DNA from: Patescibacteria group bacterium
GTDB lineage: Bacteria > Patescibacteriota > Patescibacteriia > Patescibacteriales > UBA12465
Reading direction: 5' to 3'
Length of the DNA: 64,000 bases
Assembly (NCBI GenBank): GCA_041661685.1
Contig: JBAZTY010000004.1
Location: 9,359-73,358, forward strand
Shown here: positions 1 to 60,073 of the stretch, in pieces
Numbering within the stretch: position 1 is the stretch's first letter
Layout of the letters: each line of letters opens with the position of its first letter
Position numbers and translations under genes: made by a program
The notes under the pieces: generated by a model
The model's database searches: none
Told to the model about the DNA's origin: nothing
The model's input: the letters and a program-made list of their open reading frames with translations, nothing else

Positions 1-1107
1 CCTTCGACCAAACAGATTTCTCTCATTTCTATCCCGCGCGACCTAGTCGCTCCGGTCAGTAATTGGCAGAAAGTAAACAGCATCAACGCTTATGCCGAAA
101 AAGCTAATCCGGGCAGCGGCGGCGAAGTAACCTCAAAAGCCTTCACGGAATTATTGCAGACGCCGATAGATTATTATATCCGGGTAGACTTCAGCGGCTT
201 CTCTAATATTATCGACGAGCTCGGCGGAATTCAAGTTAATGTAGAAAATACTCTGGATGATTATTCTTACCCGATTCTCGGCCAAGAAGATAACCCGAGC
301 TATTATTCCCGCTATGAACACCTGCACATCGAGAAAGGGCTACAGACCATGGATGGATCATTAGCTTTAAAATATGCTCGCAGCCGGCATGCGGCCGGCG
401 GAGAAGGCTCGGATTTTTCTCGAGCCAAGCGCCAGCAATTGGTCTTGGAGGCGGTAAAAGATAAACTTCTTTCCAGCAAGACCTTATTGAATCCGGTCAT
501 GATTACGAAACTAGTCAATGAGTTCAGCAAAGATATCTCGACCAATCTTAATGCCTGGGAAGTGCTGCGTCTCTGGGAAATGTTCAAGGATGTCGACCGC
601 GCTCAGATTATCAATAAAGTATTAAGCGATGCTCCGGATGGATTATTAGTATCTGGCATGGGGGAAAACGGCGCTTATATTCTTACTCCACGGTCCGGTA
701 ATTTCTCCGAGGTCAGAAATCTAGTTAAGAATATTTTTGCTACTTCCTCGACCGAAGCAATTACTAATTCAACCAGAACGATAGCCAGAATAAATGACGA
801 GGCAAAAGTAGCCATCCTGAACGGCACTTGGATCAGTGGCTTGGCTGGAAAAACAGCTGTCATTCTCGAACAGTCCGGATTCGTCATCTCCAAAACTGGC
901 AACTCCCCTGAGAGAGATTATGCCCAAACCACTGTCTATAGCTTAGCCACGACGACCATCAAAGAAAAATCATTAAAGACCTTAAAAATCTTGACCGGCG
1001 CTACGCAGTCTTTTGACCTCCCGGCCTGGGCAAGCGAATATCAGGACGCTAGTTCTACTCCCGATTTCTTATTGATTATCGGAACGGACGCTAATAAAGC
1101 CGAATAA
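1..1107 (+). CDS. LytR-CpsA-Psr (LCP) family cell-envelope phosphotransferase, 5' end cut by window edge
   Basis: Frame 1 is open from base 1 (PSTKQISLISIPRDLVAPV...) and runs into the listed 154..1107 ORF. LCP-type motifs SIPRD, LALKYARSRH and RAKRQQ are present, with a LytR_C-like C-terminal tail. Confidence 0.8.
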   Translation, partial: PSTKQISLISIPRDLVAPVSNWQKVNSINAYAEKANPGSGGEVTSKAFTELLQTPIDYYIRVDFSGFSNIIDELGGIQVNVENTLDDYSYPILGQEDNPSYYSRYEHLHIEKGLQTMDGSLALKYARSRHAAGGEGSDFSRAKRQQLVLEAVKDKLLSSKTLLNPVMITKLVNEFSKDISTNLNAWEVLRLWEMFKDVDRAQIINKVLSDAPDGLLVSGMGENGAYILTPRSGNFSEVRNLVKNIFATSSTEAITNSTRTIARINDEAKVAILNGTWISGLAGKTAVILEQSGFVISKTGNSPERDYAQTTVYSLATTTIKEKSLKTLKILTGATQSFDLPAWASEYQDASSTPDFLLIIGTDANKAE

Positions 1108-4322: not shown

Positions 4323-6548
4323 ATGACTTTAATAATCGTCGAGTCTCCAACTAAAGCCAAGACTATCAGCAAATTCCTGGGCAAAGAATACAAGGTCGAA
4401 TCTTCATTCGGCCATATTCGCGATCTTCCGAAAAGCGAGATGGGCGTCGATATCGAACACGGCTTCACTCCGAAATATATCATTCCAACTAAAGCCAAGA
4501 AGATCGTCACTGGCTTGAAAGCTGACGCCAAAAAAGCGACAGAGGTGATTCTAGCGTCTGATGAAGACCGCGAAGGAGAAGCTATCTCTTGGCATCTGAT
4601 CCAGGCCTTGGGCTTGGATGAAAAGAAGGCGAAGAGAATCGCTTTCCATGAAATCACTAAGAACGCCATTTTAGAAGCTTTAGAAAAACCGCGCCATCTC
4701 GACCTGAATATGGTCGATGCGCAACAGGCACGCCGCGTCCTTGATCGCCTAGTCGGTTACGAGCTTTCTCCTTTTTTATGGAAGAAAGTAGCTAAAGGCC
4801 TATCCGCCGGACGCGTCCAAAGCGTCGCCACCCGCTTGATAGTCGAAAGAGAGAGAGAAATACAGGCTTTTATCACTGAAGAATACTGGAGCCTGTCGGC
4901 CGATTTCAGCGGCAGTACTAAAGAAGAGAAATTCACCGCCGACTTATATAAAATCAGAAATAAGACTTTTGATAAGCTGAGCATCAAGAAATCAGAAGCA
5001 GATGAACTAAAAAAAATTCTGCATCAGGCTGAATACACTATCGAAAAAATCGAAAAGAAAGAGGTCAACAAGAATCCGGGCGCTCCGTTCACGACCTCGA
5101 CCTTGCAGCAATCAGCTAATCGCCACTTAGGTTTCAGCGCTAAGCAGACTATGGCCGTCGCTCAGAAATTATATGAAGAGGGGCATATCACCTACATGCG
5201 TACCGACTCTCTTAACCTGTCTCCGAAATTCTTAGGAGATGCCGAGGAATGGATTAAGAAAAATCTAGGCGCTGACTACGTCGTCAAAGGCGGACGAAAA
5301 TTCAAGAATAAGAGCAAAAACGCTCAAGAGGCTCATGAGGCCGTTCGTCCGACTGAGGCCGCAAATACTCCTGAGATATTAGCCGCTAAATTAGATAAGA
5401 ACCAGGAACGTTTATACCGCTTGATCTGGCAACGGGCCGTGGCCAGCCAGATGACGGCTGCCAAGATGGCCGCTACTGCTATCGACGTAAAAGCTTTGGA
5501 TAACAAAGAAATCTATATCTTCCGCGCCAATGGGCAAACTCTGATCTTCCCTGGATACTTGAAAGTCTGGCCGGAAAAAACCAAGGAGCAAGAATTGCCG
5601 CTCGTGGAAGAGAAGCAATCTGTCATCATGATTGATCTGCGCACTGACCAGCACTCTACCAACCCGCCAGCTAGATTTTCCGATGCCAGCTTGGTTAAAG
5701 AACTAGAAAAATATGACATCGGCCGTCCGTCTACTTACGCGCCGACAATCAATACGATTATCGTCCGCAATTATGTGGAACGTGATGAAAACAAAAAACT
5801 GAAACCAACCAGCATCGCTTTCGTCGTCACTGATCTATTATTGAAGCATTTCCCGAAGATTGTCGACTATAAATTCACGGCCGCCATGGAAAATGACTTA
5901 GACCTGATTGCGGACGGCCAGAAGGGCTGGCAGCTAGTAATTGGAGATTTCTATCACGACTTCCATGATAACCTGGAGAAAAAATATACAGAAATTAATA
6001 AGAACGATATTATGCCTGAAGAAAAATCAACCGAGGTCTGCGACAAGTGTGGTGCGCCCATGATCATCAAGACCGGGCGTTACGGAAAATTCCTAGCTTG
6101 CAGCGCTTTCCCTGAATGCCGCAATATCAAAAAGATGTCCGGCGAACAGGGAGGAGAAAAAAAAGAGCCGGATGCTAAGACCCTGGAGCTAGAAAAGAAA
6201 TATGCCGGCCAAGTCTGCGACAAATGCGGTTCGCCGATGAAAGTCAGGGTCGGGAAGTACGGCCCGTTCCTAGCTTGTTCTGCCTATCCGAAATGCAAGA
6301 ACATTAAGAATATCGATCAGCCTGGAGACGGGAAGGAAATCGCCTGTCCAATCTGCGGCGATGGCAAGATTGTCAAAAAATTCAGCAAGCGCGGCGCTTT
6401 CTATGCCTGCAGCAACTATCCGAAATGCAAGAACGCTTATTGGGGCCAGCCGACCGGGGAAAAATGTCCGGACTGCGAAGCTCTCTTAGTCACCGACAAG
6501 GACGGAGAGATAAAATGCAGTAATCGCGGCTGCGGATACAAGAAATAA
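4323..6548 (+). CDS. topA: DNA topoisomerase I (type IA) with four C-terminal zinc ribbons
   Basis: Toprim start LIIVESPTKAKTISKFLG and DEDREGE. Active-site region ITYMRTDS. Four CxxC...CxxxxxC fingers (for example CDKCGAPMIIKTGRYGKFLACSAFPEC). Confidence 0.95.
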   Translation: MTLIIVESPTKAKTISKFLGKEYKVESSFGHIRDLPKSEMGVDIEHGFTPKYIIPTKAKKIVTGLKADAKKATEVILASDEDREGEAISWHLIQALGLDEKKAKRIAFHEITKNAILEALEKPRHLDLNMVDAQQARRVLDRLVGYELSPFLWKKVAKGLSAGRVQSVATRLIVEREREIQAFITEEYWSLSADFSGSTKEEKFTADLYKIRNKTFDKLSIKKSEADELKKILHQAEYTIEKIEKKEVNKNPGAPFTTSTLQQSANRHLGFSAKQTMAVAQKLYEEGHITYMRTDSLNLSPKFLGDAEEWIKKNLGADYVVKGGRKFKNKSKNAQEAHEAVRPTEAANTPEILAAKLDKNQERLYRLIWQRAVASQMTAAKMAATAIDVKALDNKEIYIFRANGQTLIFPGYLKVWPEKTKEQELPLVEEKQSVIMIDLRTDQHSTNPPARFSDASLVKELEKYDIGRPSTYAPTINTIIVRNYVERDENKKLKPTSIAFVVTDLLLKHFPKIVDYKFTAAMENDLDLIADGQKGWQLVIGDFYHDFHDNLEKKYTEINKNDIMPEEKSTEVCDKCGAPMIIKTGRYGKFLACSAFPECRNIKKMSGEQGGEKKEPDAKTLELEKKYAGQVCDKCGSPMKVRVGKYGPFLACSAYPKCKNIKNIDQPGDGKEIACPICGDGKIVKKFSKRGAFYACSNYPKCKNAYWGQPTGEKCPDCEALLVTDKDGEIKCSNRGCGYKK

Positions 6549-6967: not shown

Positions 6968-9397
6968 TTAAAAGTCTCTTAATCTGACTTCGAATTTCTG
7001 AGCAAGATGAGCGACTAGATCTGTCTGGATCTTATCGACTTCGCCGGCAGTCAGGGTCCGGTCTTCTGATTGGTAAGAGAGATGGAAAGCTAAGCTCTTC
7101 TTGCCGCCTTCCAATTTATTTCCGATATAGACATCAAACAGTTCAACGGATCTAATCAGAGGATTGAATCGGCTCATCTCTCGCCTTAAATCATTATACA
7201 ATATTTTATTCTCAACTACAAAGGCTACGTCGCGCATCACTGGCGGATATTTCGGCGCTTCAGCGAAATGAAAAGATGGCTGGCCGAGAACTAGCTCGAC
7301 TAGCTTATTGAAATTCAATTCTGCCAGAGCGGCTCCTCTCTTAAGATTCATATTATTGATGACCTCCTGGCTAAGAGACCCGACAATGCCAATTTCTTGT
7401 CCGAACACTAGAACTTTCGCAATCGCATATTTGTCCGCCCAGCCCGGCGTCCCATCAATTATGGAAAATTCTGCTTCGGTATGCTGGTTAAAGATATTCT
7501 TGAATAAGCTATCAATGATGCTCTTGAGCTGCCCGAAGTTATCTTCTTCTCCGGTAACGGCCAGACCGAGACGTTTTTCCTGATAGGGCAGGAAATTTCC
7601 TTCAGTCTCGTCCTTCCGAATATTTCCCGGGTTCTTAAAAAAGGCGCTGCCGATCTCGAAGAAGCCGAATCTCTCGCTCTTGAATTGATTGGCTTTAATG
7701 TTGCTAGCCAATCCGGGGGCGAGGGACTGACGCAAGAGATTCTGAATGCCCGAAAGCGGATTAGCCAACTTGAGATAATTGAAGAAATCTATGTTCATCT
7801 TCTTCAGCTGGTCTTCACCAACGAAAGAATAATTATAAGCTTCATTAAGAGAATTCTTAAGGCTGAGAATATTCTTGATCTTCCGCTCGATCTTCCGCTC
7901 TTCGTTGACTTCCGGGAGATCCATCGTAAAGACCGGCAAACGCGACTCGATATTATTATAACCGTAAAGCCTGAGCACTTCCTCGGCGACATCTTCTTTG
8001 CTAGAAACGTCTTTAGTCGCGCGCCAAGAAGGAACAGCCACTTTCAAAACCGCACTCTTCTGGTCTTCAATAGTAAATCCGAGCTTTTCAAGAATATTAA
8101 TCACCTCTTCGCGGGGAATCTCCTGACCGATCTTATTCTTCAACCAGTCTAAATCCAAATCAACCGTCAATTTATTCTTATCGGTATTATCAATATCTAT
8201 GAGAGCGCTGACTATCTCCATCTTCGGGCAGATCTCTTTCAGAAGCGTCAAAAAACGAAACATGGCTTGTTCAGTTAAGGCCGGATCAAGGGCTTTTTCA
8301 AAACGAACCGAAGCCTCAGTCCGCAAACCTAATTTCTGGGAAGTCTTGCGCACGCTGCCAGCTAAAAAATTAGCTGATTCTAACACTAACCCCGTAGTCT
8401 CAGCATTAATCTCGCTATTATGCCCGCCCATAACGCCGGCGATCGCTACGGCCTGATGACCGTCGGTAATGACTAAATCATCAGAAGATAAGACGCGCTC
8501 TTTCTCATCAAGAGTCTCGATGGTTTCGCCTTTATCGGCGCGACGGACGACAATCTTCTTAATCTTCGCGGCATCAAAAGCATGCATCGGCTGACCGCAA
8601 TCAAACATGACATAATTAGTCAGATCGACGATATTATTGATCGGGCGCTGATTGGCGGCTACTAATCTTTCCTTGAGCCAGGCCGGAGATTCTTTCACTT
8701 CGATATTACTCACCGCCACCGCCATATAGCGCGGACAAGCATCGAGAGCAGATACTTTAACTTCCAATTTATTTTCCTTGTCGCTTAAAAATTTCCATTT
8801 ACGATCAAGCATTTTTTCATAGGGCTTCAGAGCCAGACTGAAAATGGCCGCCAGCTCGCGAGCTAACCCATAATGATTCAAGAGATCGGGACGATTAGAT
8901 AAGGATTTATTATCTATCTCTAAAATAATATCGTCAGCTTTCAGATATTTAGCAAATGATTCTCCGATCTTAGCGCTGTCTCTTAAGACCATGATGCCTT
9001 CATGATTCTTGCCCAGCCCTAATTCATCTTCCGCGCAGATCATGCCTTCTGATTTCTCGCCGCGGATAAGAGATTCTTTTATTTCTAAGCCATTAGGGAG
9101 AACAGCGCCGATCATAGCGACCGCGACCAACTGTCCGGCGGCGACATTAGGCGCGCCGCAGACGATATTTAGTTTTTTCTTCTTAACGTCGACGACAGTC
9201 AAGCGCAGGCGGTCGGCGTTAGGATGCTTGGACACTTCCAAAACCTTGCCGACGACAACATTATTGAATTGAGCGGCGGAATTTACCAGACCTTCAACTT
9301 CGACCGTATGATTAGTTAGTTCGGTCGCGATATCTTCCGGCTTTATCTTTGACGGTATCTTAACGTAATCTTTTAACCAATTAAGCGATATATACAT
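6968..9397 (-). CDS. pheT: Phenylalanine--tRNA ligase beta subunit
   Basis: 809 aa. N-terminal tRNA-binding domain (MYISLNWLKDY..., VCGAPNV), B3/4, B5 and FDX-ACB-like C-terminus. Immediately downstream of pheS. Confidence 0.95.
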   Translation of the reverse strand: MYISLNWLKDYVKIPSKIKPEDIATELTNHTVEVEGLVNSAAQFNNVVVGKVLEVSKHPNADRLRLTVVDVKKKKLNIVCGAPNVAAGQLVAVAMIGAVLPNGLEIKESLIRGEKSEGMICAEDELGLGKNHEGIMVLRDSAKIGESFAKYLKADDIILEIDNKSLSNRPDLLNHYGLARELAAIFSLALKPYEKMLDRKWKFLSDKENKLEVKVSALDACPRYMAVAVSNIEVKESPAWLKERLVAANQRPINNIVDLTNYVMFDCGQPMHAFDAAKIKKIVVRRADKGETIETLDEKERVLSSDDLVITDGHQAVAIAGVMGGHNSEINAETTGLVLESANFLAGSVRKTSQKLGLRTEASVRFEKALDPALTEQAMFRFLTLLKEICPKMEIVSALIDIDNTDKNKLTVDLDLDWLKNKIGQEIPREEVINILEKLGFTIEDQKSAVLKVAVPSWRATKDVSSKEDVAEEVLRLYGYNNIESRLPVFTMDLPEVNEERKIERKIKNILSLKNSLNEAYNYSFVGEDQLKKMNIDFFNYLKLANPLSGIQNLLRQSLAPGLASNIKANQFKSERFGFFEIGSAFFKNPGNIRKDETEGNFLPYQEKRLGLAVTGEEDNFGQLKSIIDSLFKNIFNQHTEAEFSIIDGTPGWADKYAIAKVLVFGQEIGIVGSLSQEVINNMNLKRGAALAELNFNKLVELVLGQPSFHFAEAPKYPPVMRDVAFVVENKILYNDLRREMSRFNPLIRSVELFDVYIGNKLEGGKKSLAFHLSYQSEDRTLTAGEVDKIQTDLVAHLAQKFEVRLRDF

Positions 9398-14780: not shown

Positions 14781-14854
14781 GGGCATATAGCTCAGCTGGT
14801 TAGAGCACCGCTCTTATAAAGCGGGGGTCGATGGTTCAAGTCCATCTATGCCCA
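14781..14854 (+). tRNA. tRNA-Ile, anticodon UAU
   Basis: Hand-folded 74-nt cloverleaf. Acceptor GGGCATA/TATGCCC, anticodon arm CCGCT-CTTATAA-AGCGG, T arm GATGG-TTCAAGT-CCATC. The body resembles tRNA-Ile. No encoded CCA. Confidence 0.85.
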
Positions 14855-14870
14855 CAATCGAATAATAAAG

Positions 14871-55342: not shown

Positions 55343-56644
55343 ATGCAAGTCACAAAAAAAGATTTAGAAAAATCACAGGTTGAGCTCACCATTGAATTGT
55401 CTAATGAAGAGTTCGCTCCTTATATTGAAAAAGGCGCGGAAAAAGTTTCCCACGAAGTGAAGATCGAGGGTTTTCGTCCGGGCAAGGTCCCGTTCGACGT
55501 GCTTAAGCAGAAGATTGGCGAAATGACTATTCTCGAAGAAGCCGCTCATCTCGCCATCCACAAGACTATCGACGAAGCGATTGATAAGAATACCATGGGC
55601 CGCCAGCCGGTCGGCCAGCCCCAGGTCAATGTCGCCAAGCTCGCTCCGGATAATCCTTTAGAATATAAAGTAATCGTTTCCTTGATTCCGGAAATCGCCT
55701 TAGGAAAATACAAGGATTTGAATATCAAGCCGGAGGAGGCGAAGATCGAAGCTAAGGAATTAGATCGCGCTATGAATGACTTGAGAGAGATGCGCGCCAC
55801 CGAAGTTATCGCCGACAGGGAAATAAAGATGGGCGATAAGGTTGTCGTTGATATCAAGATGTTTCTGGATAAAGTTCCGTTAGAAGACGGCGAGCATAAG
55901 GAATTAGGGTTGCTCTTAGGCAAGGATTATTTCGTTCCGGGTTTCGATAAAAAATTAGTCGGCGCCAAGAAAGGCGAAGTCAGGAAATTCGAGCTGCCTT
56001 ATCCCGACGATCATCACCAGAAGAATCTCGCCGGCAAGATGGTCGAGTTCGAGGTTGCTATCAAGGAAGTCTATGACCGTGTTTTACCGGAATTCAATGA
56101 TGAGTTCGCCGCTTTTTTCCAACTTAAGACCCTGGATGAATTAAAGAAGAATCTAGAAGAGAGCTTGCTGCACGAGAAAAAGCATCATGCTGATCTGAAG
56201 AATGAATCCGAATTGCTTACTAAGATAATCGAGGATACTAAATTCGGTGATATGCCGGAAGAGATCATCCAGAACGAGCTTAAGAGCATGCTGGCTGAAT
56301 TAGAACAGAGCGTCGTCCGCCAAGGCGGTAAATTTGAAGACTATCTTTCCAGCATCAAGAAGGATAGGGCGGGATTAATGATCGAGATGGCGCCTAACGC
56401 CGTCAAGCGCATTAAGTCCGCGCTCGTTATCCGTGAATTAGCCGTCGTCGAGAAGATCGCTCCGACCGAGAAAGAAATCCACGAGAAGATCGATGAACTT
56501 AAGAAACAATATGCGGGCAATAAGGAAGTCACAAAGATGCTCGAAGAAGAGCACTATCATACCTATCTCAGTAATATCATGACTAACGAGAAAGTCATCA
56601 CGAAATTAAAAGAATGGAACTATGCCACCCCTGGCACAAAATAA
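55343..56644 (+). CDS. tig: Trigger factor
   Basis: N-terminal ribosome-binding signature GFRPGKVP, a central FKBP-like domain and a C-terminal helical arm domain. Confidence 0.92.
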   Translation: MQVTKKDLEKSQVELTIELSNEEFAPYIEKGAEKVSHEVKIEGFRPGKVPFDVLKQKIGEMTILEEAAHLAIHKTIDEAIDKNTMGRQPVGQPQVNVAKLAPDNPLEYKVIVSLIPEIALGKYKDLNIKPEEAKIEAKELDRAMNDLREMRATEVIADREIKMGDKVVVDIKMFLDKVPLEDGEHKELGLLLGKDYFVPGFDKKLVGAKKGEVRKFELPYPDDHHQKNLAGKMVEFEVAIKEVYDRVLPEFNDEFAAFFQLKTLDELKKNLEESLLHEKKHHADLKNESELLTKIIEDTKFGDMPEEIIQNELKSMLAELEQSVVRQGGKFEDYLSSIKKDRAGLMIEMAPNAVKRIKSALVIRELAVVEKIAPTEKEIHEKIDELKKQYAGNKEVTKMLEEEHYHTYLSNIMTNEKVITKLKEWNYATPGTK

Positions 56645-57080
56645 AAAAGCGGGATTTGATTATGAGATACTGGATAAGTATGAGGCCGGTTTAGTTCTGC
56701 ATGGCCATGAGGTCAAAGCTGTACGCGCCGGCCAGGTCAGCCTGAAGGGCAGTTTCATCTCTATCCGCACTAAGAGCGGGAAAACCGAGCTTTATCTCAT
56801 CGGCGCCCAAATATCCCCCTATAAGGCCGCTGGGCCCATGCCGGACTATAATCAGACCAGGGAGCGGAAATTGCTCCTGAAAAAAGAGGAAATTAACCAA
56901 TTATTAGGCAAGAAGCTGAAAGAGGGCTTGACACTTATCCCCCTCAAAATATATACTAATCATAGTTTTCTGAAGCTTGAATTCGCTATCGCCCGCGGCA
57001 AGAAGAAATTCGATAAGCGCGAGGCGATTAAGAAGCGAGAAGTCGACAGGAATCTACGGTCATTGACAAAGAGGCGCTAG
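56622..57080 (+). CDS. smpB: SsrA-binding protein SmpB
   Basis: QNKKAGFDYEILDKYEAGLVLHGHEVKAVR and a basic C-terminal tail. Immediately upstream of the tmRNA gene. Confidence 0.92.
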   Translation: MPPLAQNKKAGFDYEILDKYEAGLVLHGHEVKAVRAGQVSLKGSFISIRTKSGKTELYLIGAQISPYKAAGPMPDYNQTRERKLLLKKEEINQLLGKKLKEGLTLIPLKIYTNHSFLKLEFAIARGKKKFDKREAIKKREVDRNLRSLTKRR

Positions 57081-57101
57081 CGCCTCGAAACTATGATTAC
57101 T

Positions 57102-57487
57102 GGGGATGAAAGGCATCGACAGCCGGACCTTTCTCTAAATATTCAAGACGCGCTTAGCTATCCGCGTTAAACTGACTAAAAAAACACAAATGCCAAATCG
57201 GCAAGAGCATTCACTTGGTTAACTCCGAGTTATGCTCCAGTTATGGCCTAACAAATAAAGCCATAGCCATCGGACACGGCAAGTCTTCATAGCCGTCTCT
57301 CCGGTGTCATCAACATGAAGATAGGCTTCTGCCGCTCTTTCCGGAAGGATGCCGAAACAACAGAAAGATCGTTCCAACCGCTTTTGTCCGGTTTCTGATG
57401 GTTGGAATTAAACAACAAAATCGGTCTACTCTTGTAAATGTGTTTAGATAAACCGACTGGACATGGGTTCAACTCCCATCATCTCCA
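57102..57487 (+). ncRNA. ssrA: tmRNA (SsrA), one-piece
   Basis: 5' GGGGATGAAAGGCATCGAC and 3' GGACATGGGTTCAACTCCCATCATCTCCA form the tRNA-like domain. There is an internal reading frame ending ...TAT GCT CCA GTT ATG GCC TAA at 57248-57250. Adjacent to smpB. Confidence 0.85.
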
Positions 57488-57496
57488 CGTAAATGC

Positions 57497-57583
57497 GCCG
57501 CGGTGGCGGAACTGGTAGACGCGCTGGACTTAAAATCCAGTTGTAGCGATACAGTGCGGGTTCGATTCCCGCCCGCGGCACCA
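57497..57583 (+). tRNA. tRNA-Leu, anticodon UAA (class II, long variable arm, CCA encoded)
   Basis: Acceptor GCCGCGG/CCGCGGC, anticodon arm CTGGA-CTTAAAA-TCCAG, T arm GCGGG-TTCGATT-CCCGC, terminal ACCA. Confidence 0.9.
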
Positions 57584-57607
57584 GTGATTAGTTAGATTAA
57601 GAATATT

Positions 57608-57679
57608 GCGGGTATCGTATAGTGGTTATTATGCGACCTTGCCAAGGTCGAGAGACGGGTTCGATTCCCGTTACCCGCT
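57608..57679 (+). tRNA. tRNA-Gly, anticodon GCC
   Basis: Acceptor GCGGGTA/TACCCGC, anticodon arm CGACC-TTGCCAA-GGTCG, T arm ACGGG-TTCGATT-CCCGT. Confidence 0.9.
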
Positions 57680-57684
57680 CAAAA

Positions 57685-57720
57685 GAAAAAAGACAGGATT
57701 AATCCTGTCTTTTTTCTTTT
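57685..57720 (+). terminator. Rho-independent terminator closing the smpB-ssrA-tRNA unit
   Basis: AGACAGGA-TTAA-TCCTGTCT followed by TTTTTTCTTTT. Confidence 0.8.
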
Positions 57721-57721
57721 C

Positions 57722-57888
57722 GTGTTGAGTTTTGGGAATCGAACTAGTAGCGAGCGAGATATGAGAAGGAGCGGAAGCGACGACGAGTAATCGAGCGACG
57801 ATAAACGCGACCCAGGGAAGCGTTTAGCGGCTACTCTGGACAAGTGAGCTTTTCGCTTGCTGGCGAAAAGCGAGCGCGAAACCCTCCG
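57722..57888 (+). repeat. Purine-rich repeat element, copy 1 (head GTGTTGAGTTTTGGGAATCGAACT)
   Basis: Shares a 21/24-identical head and looser downstream blocks with copy 2 at 59237. Contains hairpins at 57803-57825 and 57848-57871. No ORF of 60 aa or more. Confidence 0.5.
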
Positions 57889-58070
57889 TATCTGTTAAGG
57901 TATAAAAATAGAGTAATATTGGTATATTTTTATTATATTGACAAATATTGACATATTATGTTAAACTTTTTTGTTACATAATCGCTTTAACACCAACACT
58001 GATGTTATCGCTTTCTATCTGTCCTTTAAAATAATTAAAAACAATAACTAAATAAGAAAGGAAAATAATC

Positions 58071-59177
58071 ATGAAAAATCTTGATGTCATCTTTGAAGGC
58101 CTAAAAAGTACCTGGTTTCCCACAAAAGAAGACAAGGCCTGGAAACAATGGGTAGATTTTCGAAATAGGGAAGAAAATGATTTAATTGGACTTTTGACTG
58201 CCGATGTTAAGGAGGGATTTAAAAGAAGAGCCCTGTTTCTTCTTCTTGTTCCTTCCTCGGATTTCAATTCTATTTATTGGAAGAATGAAGTAGGGAAGTT
58301 TTACAAAGGACCGGAATTTTTGCATTCTTTATCTCCATCTCTTCTGGGCTATGTGGCTGAGCTCGTATCCGAGTTCTGTCGTACCCTGAGTCCGATGCAT
58401 TGCGAGCGCCCCAAAAATATTGTCAGTGGCGGTGGCGATATCAGAATTTTTATGCAAGTTCCAGATAAGTTTCATGACGCTTTGAGCTTCTATAATAATT
58501 GTATTCTGGAGTTACTCCCCCTTCTTTCCATTGAACAGGGCGAAAAAATATTTTCGTTGTTTCGTCTTATGGACATTTCCAGCTATTCTGGCATGGAAGA
58601 TGAATCAGGCTATAACCCCTTTAGTTGGTTGTTGAGTGCTAAAGACATCGATGAGAAGTGGAAGAAAATGGCTGATGTTGAGATGCGGAAGATTGTTCAA
58701 AATGAGCTTTCTGGAAAGGTCAAATCCAGGGAAGAGTGGGAGAATGCTTTGAGCTGTTATGCTTCAGTCGTTCAGTCCCAGATTTTTAGCGGACCTAATT
58801 ATTCGGTTGCTATGTTTGCGGAGCAAATGGAGTTTATCGTAGATAATTGTAAATCTAGAATGCAGCCGATAAACGATTGGCATGTTGCTAAAATATTTAA
58901 TATTTTAGCGGCCGATAATTACAAGGATTTACGGTATAAAATTGCTAAATTTGTTGTGTTCGAACGTCAAGGGAAACACTCCGAATTTTCTGTCTATAAC
59001 GAAGAAACGCTTCAAGCGGCGACTCAGATGATTACAGAGTTCGGTGATAACGATTCTGAACTGGCTGACAAATTAACTCAGTTGATTACTATCAACGAAG
59101 AAAAACAAACAGATAATGCAGCCAAGCTATTAAAAAAACAACAAGCGGAAGAAAAGCTATTATCCCAAATGAAGTAA
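58071..59177 (+). CDS. Hypothetical protein (368 aa), ORFan with no recognisable domain
   Basis: Long clean ORF preceded by AAGGAAA and followed by a strong terminator. Predicted mostly helical, with a Lys/Gln/Glu-rich C-terminal tail. Confidence 0.6.
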   Translation: MKNLDVIFEGLKSTWFPTKEDKAWKQWVDFRNREENDLIGLLTADVKEGFKRRALFLLLVPSSDFNSIYWKNEVGKFYKGPEFLHSLSPSLLGYVAELVSEFCRTLSPMHCERPKNIVSGGGDIRIFMQVPDKFHDALSFYNNCILELLPLLSIEQGEKIFSLFRLMDISSYSGMEDESGYNPFSWLLSAKDIDEKWKKMADVEMRKIVQNELSGKVKSREEWENALSCYASVVQSQIFSGPNYSVAMFAEQMEFIVDNCKSRMQPINDWHVAKIFNILAADNYKDLRYKIAKFVVFERQGKHSEFSVYNEETLQAATQMITEFGDNDSELADKLTQLITINEEKQTDNAAKLLKKQQAEEKLLSQMK

Positions 59178-59195
59178 TTTAATTCAAAGTAGGTA

Positions 59196-59229
59196 AATCC
59201 CCAGATGATTTAATTATCTGGGGTTTTTA
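59196..59229 (+). terminator. Rho-independent terminator after the 368-aa gene
   Basis: CCCCAGAT-GATTTAATT-ATCTGGGG followed by TTTTT. Confidence 0.8.
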
Positions 59230-59236
59230 TTAAACA

Positions 59237-59356
59237 GTATTGAGTTTCGGGAATCGAACAGGTTGGAAGCGAGACGCGAGCTGCGGCGAAAGACGCAGAG
59301 AGCGGGCGAGCGTCGGAATAATATTCGATTACCGGCCCCTCTCAAGGGCTCTTTTT
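59237..59356 (+). repeat. Purine-rich repeat element, copy 2 (head GTATTGAGTTTCGGGAATCGAACA)
   Basis: Same orientation as copy 1. Outer helix 59248-59258 with 59324-59334, inner hairpin 59281-59298, then a GCCC/GGGC hairpin plus T-run. Confidence 0.5.
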
Positions 59357-59385
59357 ATTCTCAAAAATTATGCTAGAATTAAATT

Positions 59386-59410
59386 GATGCGGTAGCCAAG
59401 CGGTAAGGCA
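59386..59410 (+). other. tRNA 5'-half-like fragment (acceptor plus D-arm only)
   Basis: GATGCGGTAGCCAAGCGGTAAGGCA. The GCCAAGCGGTAAGGCA part looks like the D-arm of bacterial tRNA-Gln as I recall it. No anticodon or T arm follows. Confidence 0.35.
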
Positions 59411-59446
59411 AAAATTTTAAGACTAGCAGAATCATTATAAATAATT

Positions 59447-60073
59447 ATGACTAAAATCTTCCTCACCTCTTCGGTCCACCTTGTCGCTAAGGACATCGCC
59501 AAGAAGCTCGGTGGAGCCAAGAATAAGAAGCTCCTCTATATCTATACCGCTAGTGAAAAGAAGCCTGGCGAATTATGGCAGAAAATAGACAGGCGGGCTC
59601 TTATTAAAGCAGGCTTTAAAGTTATTGACTATACTATCACCGGTAAGACCGCGGCTATTATAAAAAAAGACGTTCAGGAAAGCGAGGTTATTTATTTTGG
59701 TGGCGGAAACACCTTTTATCTATTACAACAAATCCAGCTCACTAAATCTGCCAGTATATTTCGTAGGGCTGTTGAAGCCGGTAAGATTTATATCGGTACT
59801 AGCGCTGGATCTATAGTCGCCGGACCGGATATTTATCCTTCTTATAGACTCGATGATGTTAAACAAGCCCCCAAGATTAGGGGGTATAAAGGATTGAGTA
59901 TTGTTGATTTTGTTATATTCCCGCATTGGGGTAGTGAACACTTCAGAAGCCGCTATCTAAATCAGCGCCTAGCCTTTAATTATCATACTAAGAACAAGTT
60001 TATCCTCCTCAACGATTATCAGTATATGCAAGTAGAAGGAGATTGGTATCGCATGGTTGAAGTAAAACATTAA
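59447..60073 (+). CDS. Peptidase S51 (dipeptidase E-like) family protein
   Basis: FGGGNTFYLL and the nucleophile elbow IGTSAGSIVAG, with a downstream His (FPHWG). Confidence 0.8.
   Translation: MTKIFLTSSVHLVAKDIAKKLGGAKNKKLLYIYTASEKKPGELWQKIDRRALIKAGFKVIDYTITGKTAAIIKKDVQESEVIYFGGGNTFYLLQQIQLTKSASIFRRAVEAGKIYIGTSAGSIVAGPDIYPSYRLDDVKQAPKIRGYKGLSIVDFVIFPHWGSEHFRSRYLNQRLAFNYHTKNKFILLNDYQYMQVEGDWYRMVEVKH

Follow-up and report, generated by a model that had tools for sequence, protein, structure and literature searches.

The locus studied here raises the question of why two related, purine-rich tracts in the same orientation bracket a single gene directly behind the ssrA, tRNA-Leu and tRNA-Gly genes of a Patescibacteria group bacterium (GCA_041661685.1, contig JBAZTY010000004.1, positions 9,359-73,358 of the forward strand; this stretch of 64,000 nucleotides (nt) is called the window). 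An earlier note on the window had proposed att-like scars of an insertion at a tRNA hotspot, a small repeated family of structured RNA, or a duplicated micro-open reading frame (micro-ORF). We find that each tract is a copy of a non-coding unit of about 160 nt with four helices, which belongs to a family of more than 90 members with strong covariation; the second proposal was close to the mark. The repeats are a conserved internal module of cassettes inserted at tRNA genes. We put at roughly 55% the probability that the unit is the targeting and recombination module of these tRNA-directed cassettes and that it acts as a single strand.

The repeats are members of a covarying structured family

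The two copies start with 24-mers at 57722 (GTGTTGAGTTTTGGGAATCGAACT) and 59237 (GTATTGAGTTTCGGGAATCGAACA), which agree at 21 of 24 positions. These positions, the order of the three upstream RNA genes and the lack of any ORF of at least 60 amino acids (aa) over either tract are as the earlier note gave them. The resemblance of the two starts is not a matter of chance. With up to three mismatches, TTGAGTTTYGGGAATCGAAC occurs exactly twice in the 64 kb, against a mean of 0.01 in shuffled sequences, none of 100 of which reached two.

A seed of six full-length copies was aligned to a hand-drawn structure in which helix P1 closes a three-way junction with P2 and P3 and is followed by a linker and P4. 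In this seed 83% of the cells were paired, and 19 pairs were changed on both sides; the figure was 10.5±1.9 for shuffles and did not exceed 4 for slid controls. The covariance model built from the seed, R1, did not include copy 2. It scored 162.6 bits with copy 1 and 44.7 bits (E = 5e-12) with copy 2, and it had no other match in the window. The looser similarity that had been noticed past the start of the repeats is thus true homology. R1 also matched units in L011, L012, L013 and L029 (L-numbers denote comparison loci from related genomes or metagenome contigs).

Metagenome contigs were scanned with a scaffold motif of fixed spacing (GAACWRGT-N4-AGCGAG-N30-38-CGAGCGWC), which was found in more than 118 contigs, a lower bound. 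R1 identified 90 units in 71 of 80 of these loci. In an alignment of 86 distinct sequences, which was fitted to R1 itself, 87.6% of the cells were paired versus 67.2% in shuffles, and both partners had changed in 686 cells, where shuffles gave 195±15 and slid controls no more than 151. Four pair types were seen at many positions of the alignment. The helices are strongly supported by both kinds of control, and covariation was one of the checks that the earlier note had suggested.

The fold is strand-specific. G-U and U-G pairs numbered 127 versus 38 for A-C and C-A, and G-A and A-G combinations numbered 207 versus 10 for C-U and U-C. The excess of G-U over A-C indicates that the strand in the sense of the tRNA is the folding strand. 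Tandem G-A motifs lie between the helices, a GNRA-type loop (consensus GGAA) typically closes P2, and the 3' end of the scaffold reads GCGA(A/U)A. The hairpins previously drawn for copy 1, AAACGC/GCGTTT and GCTTTTCGC/GCGAAAAGC, are real and correspond to P3 and P4, and the CTGCG/CGCAG hairpin of copy 2 is the tip of P2. The outer helix CGGGAATCGAA/TTCGATTACCG drawn for copy 2 falls outside the conserved structure, because the family alignment places its 3' bases in P3 and P1. On the same ground we rejected the idea that the 3' end of copy 2 is a decayed tRNA-Gly 3' end.

No known family covers the scaffolds. Rfam 15 searched by cmscan with E values up to 10 gave only the tmRNA (transfer-messenger RNA, the ssrA product) and the two tRNAs above threshold at 56900-59600 of the window. 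At eight further loci it gave no family over the scaffold, and weak miRNA-precursor-like matches there reflect a long fold-back hairpin. An intact unit had no blastn match in phage and plasmid collections, and an internal scaffold pattern had 0 matches in viral contigs. The exact head pattern also had 0 matches in metagenome contigs, because this pattern is too specific. We found no published description of a covarying module of about 160 nt in Rfam or in the literature searched. The module is apparently undescribed and widespread in Patescibacteria.

The head of the unit mirrors the T-loop of the adjacent tRNA

Forty-one of the 90 units begin 39-60 nt past a tRNA gene on the same strand, and these genes represent 17 isoacceptors for 11 amino acids. 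A tRNA on the opposite strand upstream was found for none of the 90. The tmRNA gene is a target as well, since L029 contains two tandem units between tmRNA and tRNA-Leu. The interval between tRNA and unit holds, in nearly every case, a terminator-type hairpin with an A-tract and a T-tract, followed by a spacer of about 10 nt; the sequence of this spacer is unconserved. Among the sequences inspected, units without a complete upstream tRNA usually still have a partial tRNA 3' end before the hairpin.

Each unit starts with a head of 11-12 nt whose sequence follows the tRNA beside it, as the reverse complement of nt 53-63 in that tRNA. The earlier note had recognized in the window the reverse complement of a T-loop string, and this proved to be the key clue, as it holds for the 17 isoacceptors. 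The head is GGGAATCGAAC behind tRNA-Gly, GGGGAGTCGAAC behind tRNA-Gly(UCC), GGGATTCGAAC behind tRNA-Ser and tRNA-Gln, GGGACTTGAAC behind tRNA-Leu and tRNA-Ala, CTGGACTCGAAC behind tRNA-Asn, and GGGAATTGAAC behind the tmRNA in L029. Heads matched their own tRNA at 11.7 of 14 positions and other tRNAs at 10.2, a difference reached in 0 of 10,000 permutations.

At the other end of the unit, a copy of the tRNA 3' end of at least 15 nt (the tail) follows the scaffold in 29 of 46 evaluable units. Throughout the sequences inspected this copy starts at nt 58, whatever the sequence of the T-loop. The junction thus lies at 57|58, in the middle of the tRNA segment (nt 53-63) that the head mirrors. The DNA that begins with G53 of the tRNA and ends with the head can fold back into a hairpin of about 85 nt (standard deviation 4.3), in which T-loop and head form 10-11 bp around the terminator stem in 35 of 41 cases.

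These observations leave little for the view that the repeats are functionless, that is, chance similarity, decayed coding sequence, a minus-strand tRNA pseudogene or a conserved micro-ORF. The tracts are indeed purine-rich and of low complexity, their antisense frames are open, and the three substitutions between the 24-mers all fall at third codon positions. Open antisense frames follow from base composition. The third-position pattern arises without a peptide because the tRNA T-loop dictates the GGGAATCGAAC part and the family shows no conservation of the spacer. A micro-ORF would have its start in that spacer; no ribosome-binding site was found, and neither sense nor antisense frames are conserved among members. 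A micro-ORF, an antisense ORF and a C-terminal extension of an integrase were all rejected, since such frames are open by base composition and shift between members. A tRNA or tRNA-like gene on the minus strand was also rejected: ARAGORN and the Rfam tRNA model called none, there is no cloverleaf, and the bases flanking GTTCGATTCCC form neither a T-stem nor an acceptor stem. With more than 90 homologs carrying compensatory changes, we consider this view almost certainly wrong.

Units lie in cassettes inserted at nt 57|58 of tRNA genes

We compared 80 genomes by means of SmpB. The smpB-tmRNA-tRNA-Leu-tRNA-Gly block is kept in Falkowbacteria-like relatives, and the sequence 3' of tRNA-Gly differs in almost every genome compared. 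Homologs of the repeats lie behind tRNA-Gly in L011, L012 and L013. In most close relatives of the window the site behind tRNA-Gly is empty. In L008, for example, tRNA-Gly is directly followed by CATATAGGGGGATTTATAAATTC. In L098 and L104 the order is tRNA-Gly, unit, tail, terminator, two small genes, unit, tail and then a flank of the L008 type; the terminator after the first tail is of the type that follows tRNA-Gly in L007 and L010. Comparison of the two arrangements indicates that two cassettes were added between the tRNA and the native flank.

A cassette thus consists of a replacement tRNA 3' end (nt 58 on), optional cargo, a terminator hairpin, the spacer, the head and the scaffold, and it is followed by the displaced 3' end. 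The replacement 3' end keeps the tRNA intact, and repeated insertion at one tRNA builds arrays. At least two units were present at 16 loci, and L115 holds four, all tailed by tRNA-Gln and separated by 1-1.5 kb of genes. The smallest cassettes measure about 225 bp and have no gene.

The proposal of att-like scars stands in part. Empty and occupied sites and displaced tRNA 3' ends argue for site-specific insertion at a tRNA hotspot. The repeats, in contrast, are not att sites; the true att-type repeat is the tRNA 3' end from nt 58, which is eroded in the window.

A different small insert was seen after tRNA-Gly in L032 (6200-6296), where ATGGGTTCG is followed by about 57 nt with two GC-rich hairpins and then by ATTCCCGTTACCCGCTCA. 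Since it occupies the same T-loop position 57|58, the site may serve more than one family.

The two cassettes of the window are decayed

The tRNA-Gly gene of the window carries two cassettes, one cargo-less with unit 1 and one bearing the gene for a 368-aa protein with unit 2 (Table 1). The scaffold of unit 1 is 94% identical to that of the L012 unit, and its spacer sequence is common to L002, L012 and copy 2. Where unit 1 has an eroded tail, intact relatives have the displaced tRNA-Gly 3' end ATTCCCGTTACCCGCTC. Unit 2 has no P4, 3' motif or tail. The exact sequence CCCGTTACCCGCTC occurs once in the window, which indicates that both displaced tRNA 3' ends have decayed. The eroded tails together with the loss of P4 from unit 2 suggest that both cassettes are probably immobile relics. 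L002, a relative with 85% identity, keeps unit 1 with an internal deletion of about 120 nt between two AGCGAGCG direct repeats; it has no unit 2, and flavodoxin-like and YceI genes are found in its place. Units in the lineage of L002 and the window are decaying. The region conserved with L002 upstream of the Peptidase_S51 gene, which lies downstream of the second copy, begins within the terminator-like hairpin at about 59351. No plus-strand promoter was found before either window unit.

Table 1. Coordinates of features at the tRNA-Gly locus of the window and of serine recombinase genes in comparison loci
Feature	Locus	Positions	Strand	Remarks
smpB	window	56622-57080	+	ORF call
ssrA (tmRNA)	window	57102-57488	+	ARAGORN, Rfam
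tRNA-Leu(UAA)	window	57497-57583	+	ARAGORN, Rfam
tRNA-Gly(GCC), target gene	window	57608-57680	+	ARAGORN; Rfam tRNA, 60 bits
tRNA-Gly T-loop and 3' T-stem strand, GTTCGATTCCCG	window	57659-57670	+	heads 1 and 2 are its reverse complement
Long A/T-flanked GC hairpin of bidirectional terminator type	window	57681-57720		57681-57698 pairs with 57703-57720, loop TTAA; between tRNA-Gly and unit 1
Unit 1 spacer, GTGTTGAGTTTT	window	57722-57733	+	first half of the 24-mer
Unit 1 head, GGGAATCGAAC	window	57734-57744	+	reverse complement of tRNA-Gly nt 53-63
Unit 1 scaffold	window	57746-57881	+	R1 match 57731-57891
Unit 1 P1	window	57746-57751 with 57830-57835		encloses P2 (57754-57796) and P3 (57799-57829)
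Unit 1 linker CTGGACAA, then P4	window	57844-57876	+
Unit 1 conserved 3' motif, GCGAGCGCGAAA	window	57870-57881	+
Unit 1 eroded tail, CCCTCCGTATCTG	window	57882-57894	+	by comparison with L012, L098, L104, L127
Deletion in unit 1 of L002	L002 / window	1-110 / 57749-57876		ranges compared
Promoter-like site for cargo gene	window	57938-57967	+	TTGACA-18-TAAACT with TG; kept in L002
Cargo gene, 368 aa	window	58071-59177	+
Cargo-gene terminator hairpin	window	59199-59223	+	stands in for the usual pre-unit hairpin before unit 2
Unit 2 spacer, includes GTATTGAGTTTC	window	59229-59248	+
Unit 2 head, GGGAATCGAAC	window	59249-59259	+	CGGGAATCGAAC from 59248 matches tRNA-Gly nt 53-64
Unit 2 scaffold, truncated	window	59261-59348	+	R1 match 59246-59376, P4 model positions skipped
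Unit 2 P1	window	59261-59266 with 59332-59337		GGTTGG with CCGGCC, two G-U pairs
Unit 2 P2 tip, CTGCG/CGCAG	window	59281-59298		P3 short; linker analogue CCTCTCAAGGG
Terminator-like hairpin and T-run	window	59334-59356	+	overlaps unit 2 end
Serine recombinase gene	L130	73-1584	-
Serine recombinase gene	L109	2786-3280	-
Serine recombinase gene	L029	6785-8143	-

Elsewhere in the window, ARAGORN called a tRNA-Ile with anticodon TAT at 14781-14855, which is unusual for bacteria; it adjoins tRNA-Val(GAC).

How the unit may act

As a targeting and recombination module, the unit would act as a folded single strand with the polarity of the tRNA sense strand, either single-stranded DNA (ssDNA) or RNA. 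Its head would base-pair with the T-loop of the target, on the sense strand and over the junction to be formed, and the scaffold would be the platform for a putative recombinase or transposase supplied in trans. The cassette junction (GCGAA|A58...) does not contain nt 53-57, although the head pairs with these nucleotides. A full partner of the head therefore has to be sought in the T-loop of the target, in the regenerated tRNA gene or in the tRNA, which points to reading of the target by base-pairing. The terminator upstream of the units and the lack of a conserved promoter make us lean towards ssDNA rather than RNA, on the pattern of integron attC sites, the folded attP of CTXphi or the ends of IS200/IS605 elements with their internal guides.

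Several points weigh against this reading. The mobility of the cassettes is deduced from comparative anatomy alone, and no excised form, circle junction or recombinase was seen. A recognizable tail is missing from both window units and from L013, L165, L092 and L029. Head and tail can form a helix of no more than about 6 bp, which is matched by swapped controls, so that a closed, attC-like fold is not demonstrated and we dropped it as a proven feature. RNA and ssDNA cannot be distinguished from sequence, and the GNRA-type tip of P2 and the tandem G-A pairs suit RNA equally well. The model does not account for the way in which a cassette gains a replacement 3' end that fits a new tRNA. Finally, the match between head and tRNA could be maintained by gene conversion within the fold-back hairpin instead of reflecting guiding.

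The same anatomy may be read as that of a transcribed RNA gene (a guide, a regulatory RNA or a ribozyme) whose 5' head pairs with the tRNA or its gene and whose 3' end mimics a tRNA 3' end. The strand-specific fold with its G-U pairs, GNRA-type loop and tandem G-A pairs agrees with this, as do the conserved junction sequences, the centring of the head on 57|58, the terminator that usually follows the tail, and weak TANNNT boxes 10-20 nt before the head. However, these boxes are all that was found: no -10 box at a fixed position before the units occurs across the family, and a strong terminator stands immediately upstream. The geometry recalls the P10/P1 guide of a group I intron, because the 5' half of the head pairs with nt 58-63 (P10-like) and the 3' half with nt 53-57 (P1-like), with the cargo in an L1-like loop. 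Group I introns carry a U-G pair at their 5' splice site and have G as their last base. The units differ on both counts: a G or A stands just before the junction and pairs with a C or U of the head, and the last base of the unit is A or U. Rfam gave no group I or group II match in the window and eight loci, and the intact upstream tRNA copy makes splicing unnecessary.

A second model for such an RNA is the bridge RNA or seekRNA of IS110 elements. This structured RNA of about 150-180 nt has short segments that can pair with the target to either side of the exchange point, and it is encoded in the non-coding end of an element with a DEDD recombinase. The unit is likewise structured, and its short head, which is complementary to both flanks of the junction, recalls the loop by which the bridge RNA binds its target. 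Against this, the 368-aa protein has no Pfam domain, no DEDD family is among the 25 most frequent of 151 Pfam families in the neighbourhood, and no IS110-type or other recombinase gene was found in cis to the cassettes examined. Taken together, a transcribed RNA gene seems to us unlikely.

A bolder version of the targeting module deserves mention as a tentative idea. The unit may be the core of a new class of nucleic-acid-guided cassettes without protein genes, in which the segment of 11-12 nt programs insertion at T-loop position 57|58. One to three point changes would then retarget the head, and the guide would be RNA or folded ssDNA read by a host enzyme. If it were RNA, it might be catalytic and act by intron-like reverse splicing with a guide of the internal-guide-sequence type. 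We rather doubt that the system goes this far.

Search for the enzyme

For 150 neighbouring ORFs Pfam lists 151 families, and no recurrent recombinase or Y1 transposase was among the 25 most frequent of these. No tyrosine-recombinase motif was found in ORFs of at least 90 aa from about 75 unit-bearing loci. With neither a motif in these loci nor a family among those 25, a tyrosine recombinase in cis was rejected for the loci searched. The lack of a linked recombinase suggests that the units are non-autonomous.

One gene type alone recurs near the units, a large serine recombinase (Resolvase, Recombinase and Zn_ribbon_recom domains), which is present in 10 unit-bearing loci. Its genes lie on the opposite strand with their 3' ends overlapping the tRNA 3' end. 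The last codons (...RRGRDSNPGYP* in L130, L109 and L029) are the antisense of the 3' half of the tRNA, so that the C-terminus of the recombinase would differ between the integrated and the excised state. In three of the roughly 75 loci a rolling-circle Rep (PF23343, phrog_3419) is located beside it. A conserved trio of serine recombinase, Rep and an uncharacterized 320-aa protein was seen at L146 4073-8364, L086 6460-10751 and L119 6325-8558, and it looks like an integrative rolling-circle element of Patescibacteria in tRNA-Ser arrays.

It is tempting to regard the units as an attP arm or accessory region of these serine recombinases, which occupy the same tRNA genes. However, in L130 and L146 the right junction of the recombinase element is a different one, which lies not at 57|58 but at an 8-nt repeat within the acceptor strand (...ccaag|CTCTCCGC). 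Next to it comes a unit that is separate and has a partial 3' end and a hairpin to itself. This suggests that recombinase elements and units are different elements sharing a hotspot, and it weakens the link by which the serine recombinase would be the enzyme of the units. Serine recombinases use short double-stranded sites, for which hairpin covariation and strand asymmetry are unexpected, and no such gene is present in the window or near most units. We therefore take an attP role to be very improbable.

The Rep raises another alternative, namely that the unit is the single-strand (minus-strand) origin, possibly with a packaging signal, of rolling-circle integrative elements, with cargo-less copies as remnants or satellites. 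A non-coding, strand-specific, multi-hairpin unit of about 160 nt without its own promoter fits this description, and some arrays do hold both Rep and serine integrase. But Rep is linked in three loci only, and in L130 and L146 the Rep/integrase element ends at its own junction apart from the neighbouring unit. An origin would also leave the T-loop-tracking head and the fixed 57|58 junction unexplained. We consider it improbable.

Comparison with known insertion systems

The general behaviour of the cassettes is already known from tRNA-gene islands and tandem arrays. Islands in tRNA and tmRNA genes have a restored target gene at one end and a displaced 3' tRNA fragment at the other (Islander, PMC4383910), and tycheposons are tandem tRNA-anchored arrays (bioRxiv 10.1101/2020.12.28.424599). 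The patescibacterial cassettes share with these the insertion in the 3' part of the tRNA, the restoration of the gene by the element's copy, the displaced fragment at the far end, the stacking of successive insertions and array members without integrase. A regenerated gene with a displaced 3' fragment is present in 29 of 46 evaluable units, the fragments in the window being eroded; an integrase inside the island was not found in the window cassettes or in most arrays. Unlike islands and tycheposons, the patescibacterial cassettes go down to about 225 bp without a gene, have no linked integrase and use a 57|58 junction that is fixed for 17 isoacceptors. Each also has the covarying 160-nt fold and a head complementary to the T-loop, which have not been described for such islands.

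The attC sites of integrons contain an R'' box (RYYYAAC) and an R' box (GTTRRRY), which pair at the base of a hairpin of 57-141 nt. In the units the head ends in YGAAC, the 3' end is GCGA(A/U)A followed by the tRNA tail instead of GTTRRRY, and the fold comprises about 160 nt and four helices. Cassette arrays of integrons (IntegronFinder, PMC4889954) are similar in that short, mostly single-gene cassettes each end in a structured, strand-specific site with compensatory changes, that a lineage has uniform sites but diverse cargo, and that the recombinase lies outside the cassette. In our set, 25 of 40 pairs of scaffolds with at least 92% identity had unrelated hairpins, spacers and flanks; one pair at this level of identity stood at tRNA-Ser and tRNA-Gln, which share nt 53-64. 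Such near-identical scaffolds with unrelated flanks resemble the homogeneity of attC sites in chromosomal integrons. Unlike attC, the units are anchored on a tRNA T-loop and not at attI next to intI, show no tyrosine-recombinase motif in the roughly 75 loci searched, are preceded by a terminator, conserve the sequence of the scaffold itself and are longer than a typical attC.

CTXphi-type elements integrate as folded ssDNA by means of host Xer recombinases (PMC3442271). They resemble the units in having no integrase of their own, a folded strand-specific form, inversely oriented site halves around structured DNA, tandem arrays and satellites; a rolling-circle Rep is present in some neighbouring elements. 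They differ in the target, which is dif and not a tRNA T-loop. The duplex of head and tail in the units is only about 6 bp, and a part played by ssDNA or Xer would be hypothetical for them.

Elements of the IS200/IS605 group have strand-specific hairpin ends, an internal guide of 4 nt that recognizes target and cleavage sites by base-pairing, and precise insertion by a fixed sequence. Their gene-less derivatives (PATE/REP-type) are abundant non-autonomous copies of 100-300 nt mobilised in trans. Both systems share strand-specific, hairpin-rich units and precise insertion at a fixed sequence, and the head would correspond to the short internal guide. In contrast to IS200/IS605, the head of the unit has 11-12 nt and pairs by Watson-Crick rules across the junction, and the cassette duplicates the 3' part of its target.

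Cargo genes

Cargo of the cassettes includes NUDIX, Fic and methyltransferase genes and uncharacterized ones such as that for the 368-aa protein of the window; NUDIX (four members) and Fic (two) rank among the most frequent Pfam families of the neighbouring ORFs. The window gene had been called an ORFan, a label that no longer applies, because 29 homologs down to 42% identity were found in Patescibacteria assemblies, including metagenomes. It represents a Patescibacteria-specific family without a Pfam or PHROG domain. We rejected the possibility that this gene travels with units elsewhere, as eight other homolog loci have no units or tRNAs nearby. Homologs lie in L003, L004 and L005 (at 5001-6104 in each) and in L205 (3375-4475). 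In other genomes the family member stands at the end of an operon (281 aa, 250 aa, PP2C_2, 576 aa, 367 aa). Homologs also adjoin SduA_C, a reverse transcriptase (RT) with a helix-turn-helix (HTH) gene, a helicase, ADP-ribosylglycohydrolase, DUF7919 and SMODS. Because these neighbours are of the defence type, the 368-aa family is possibly defence-related.

Two further observations concern such genes. L013 has an RT-like ORF with a YVDD motif (7951-9271, minus strand), together with an upstream HTH gene and an NYN-like gene, downstream of the tRNA-Gly unit. In L004, RVT_1 with an HTH gene lies near the cargo homolog. The tRNA-proximal regions here look like defence islands.

Significance for Patescibacteria

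In metagenome-assembled genomes, the family accounts for a recurrent class of "intergenic" tracts rich in GC and purines and for partial tRNA 3' ends. Two assemblies break exactly at the duplicated tRNA 3' end or hairpin, L012 at its contig end (6251-6272) and L002 at its contig start (1-30). The repeats thus seem to interrupt contigs during the assembly of such genomes, and some breaks just after tRNA genes are probably due to this family.

Patescibacteria have very small genomes, and their gene exchange is little understood. The family seems to offer them a common and compact way of adding single genes beside tRNA genes, with a conserved folded module and no linked integrase. As judged from the sequences compared, the combination of a T-loop-mirroring head at a fixed 57|58 junction across 17 tRNAs, a gene-less form of 225 bp and no linked integrase appears to be undescribed, as we found no account of it in Rfam or in the literature searched. 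That the head mirrors the T-loops of 17 tRNAs suggests that the target is read by base-pairing. If confirmed, this would be a new, naturally reprogrammable system of site-specific insertion. If the more tentative idea of nucleic-acid-guided cassettes is also true, the tiny genomes of Patescibacteria would possess an integron-like platform for gene capture on their tRNA genes.

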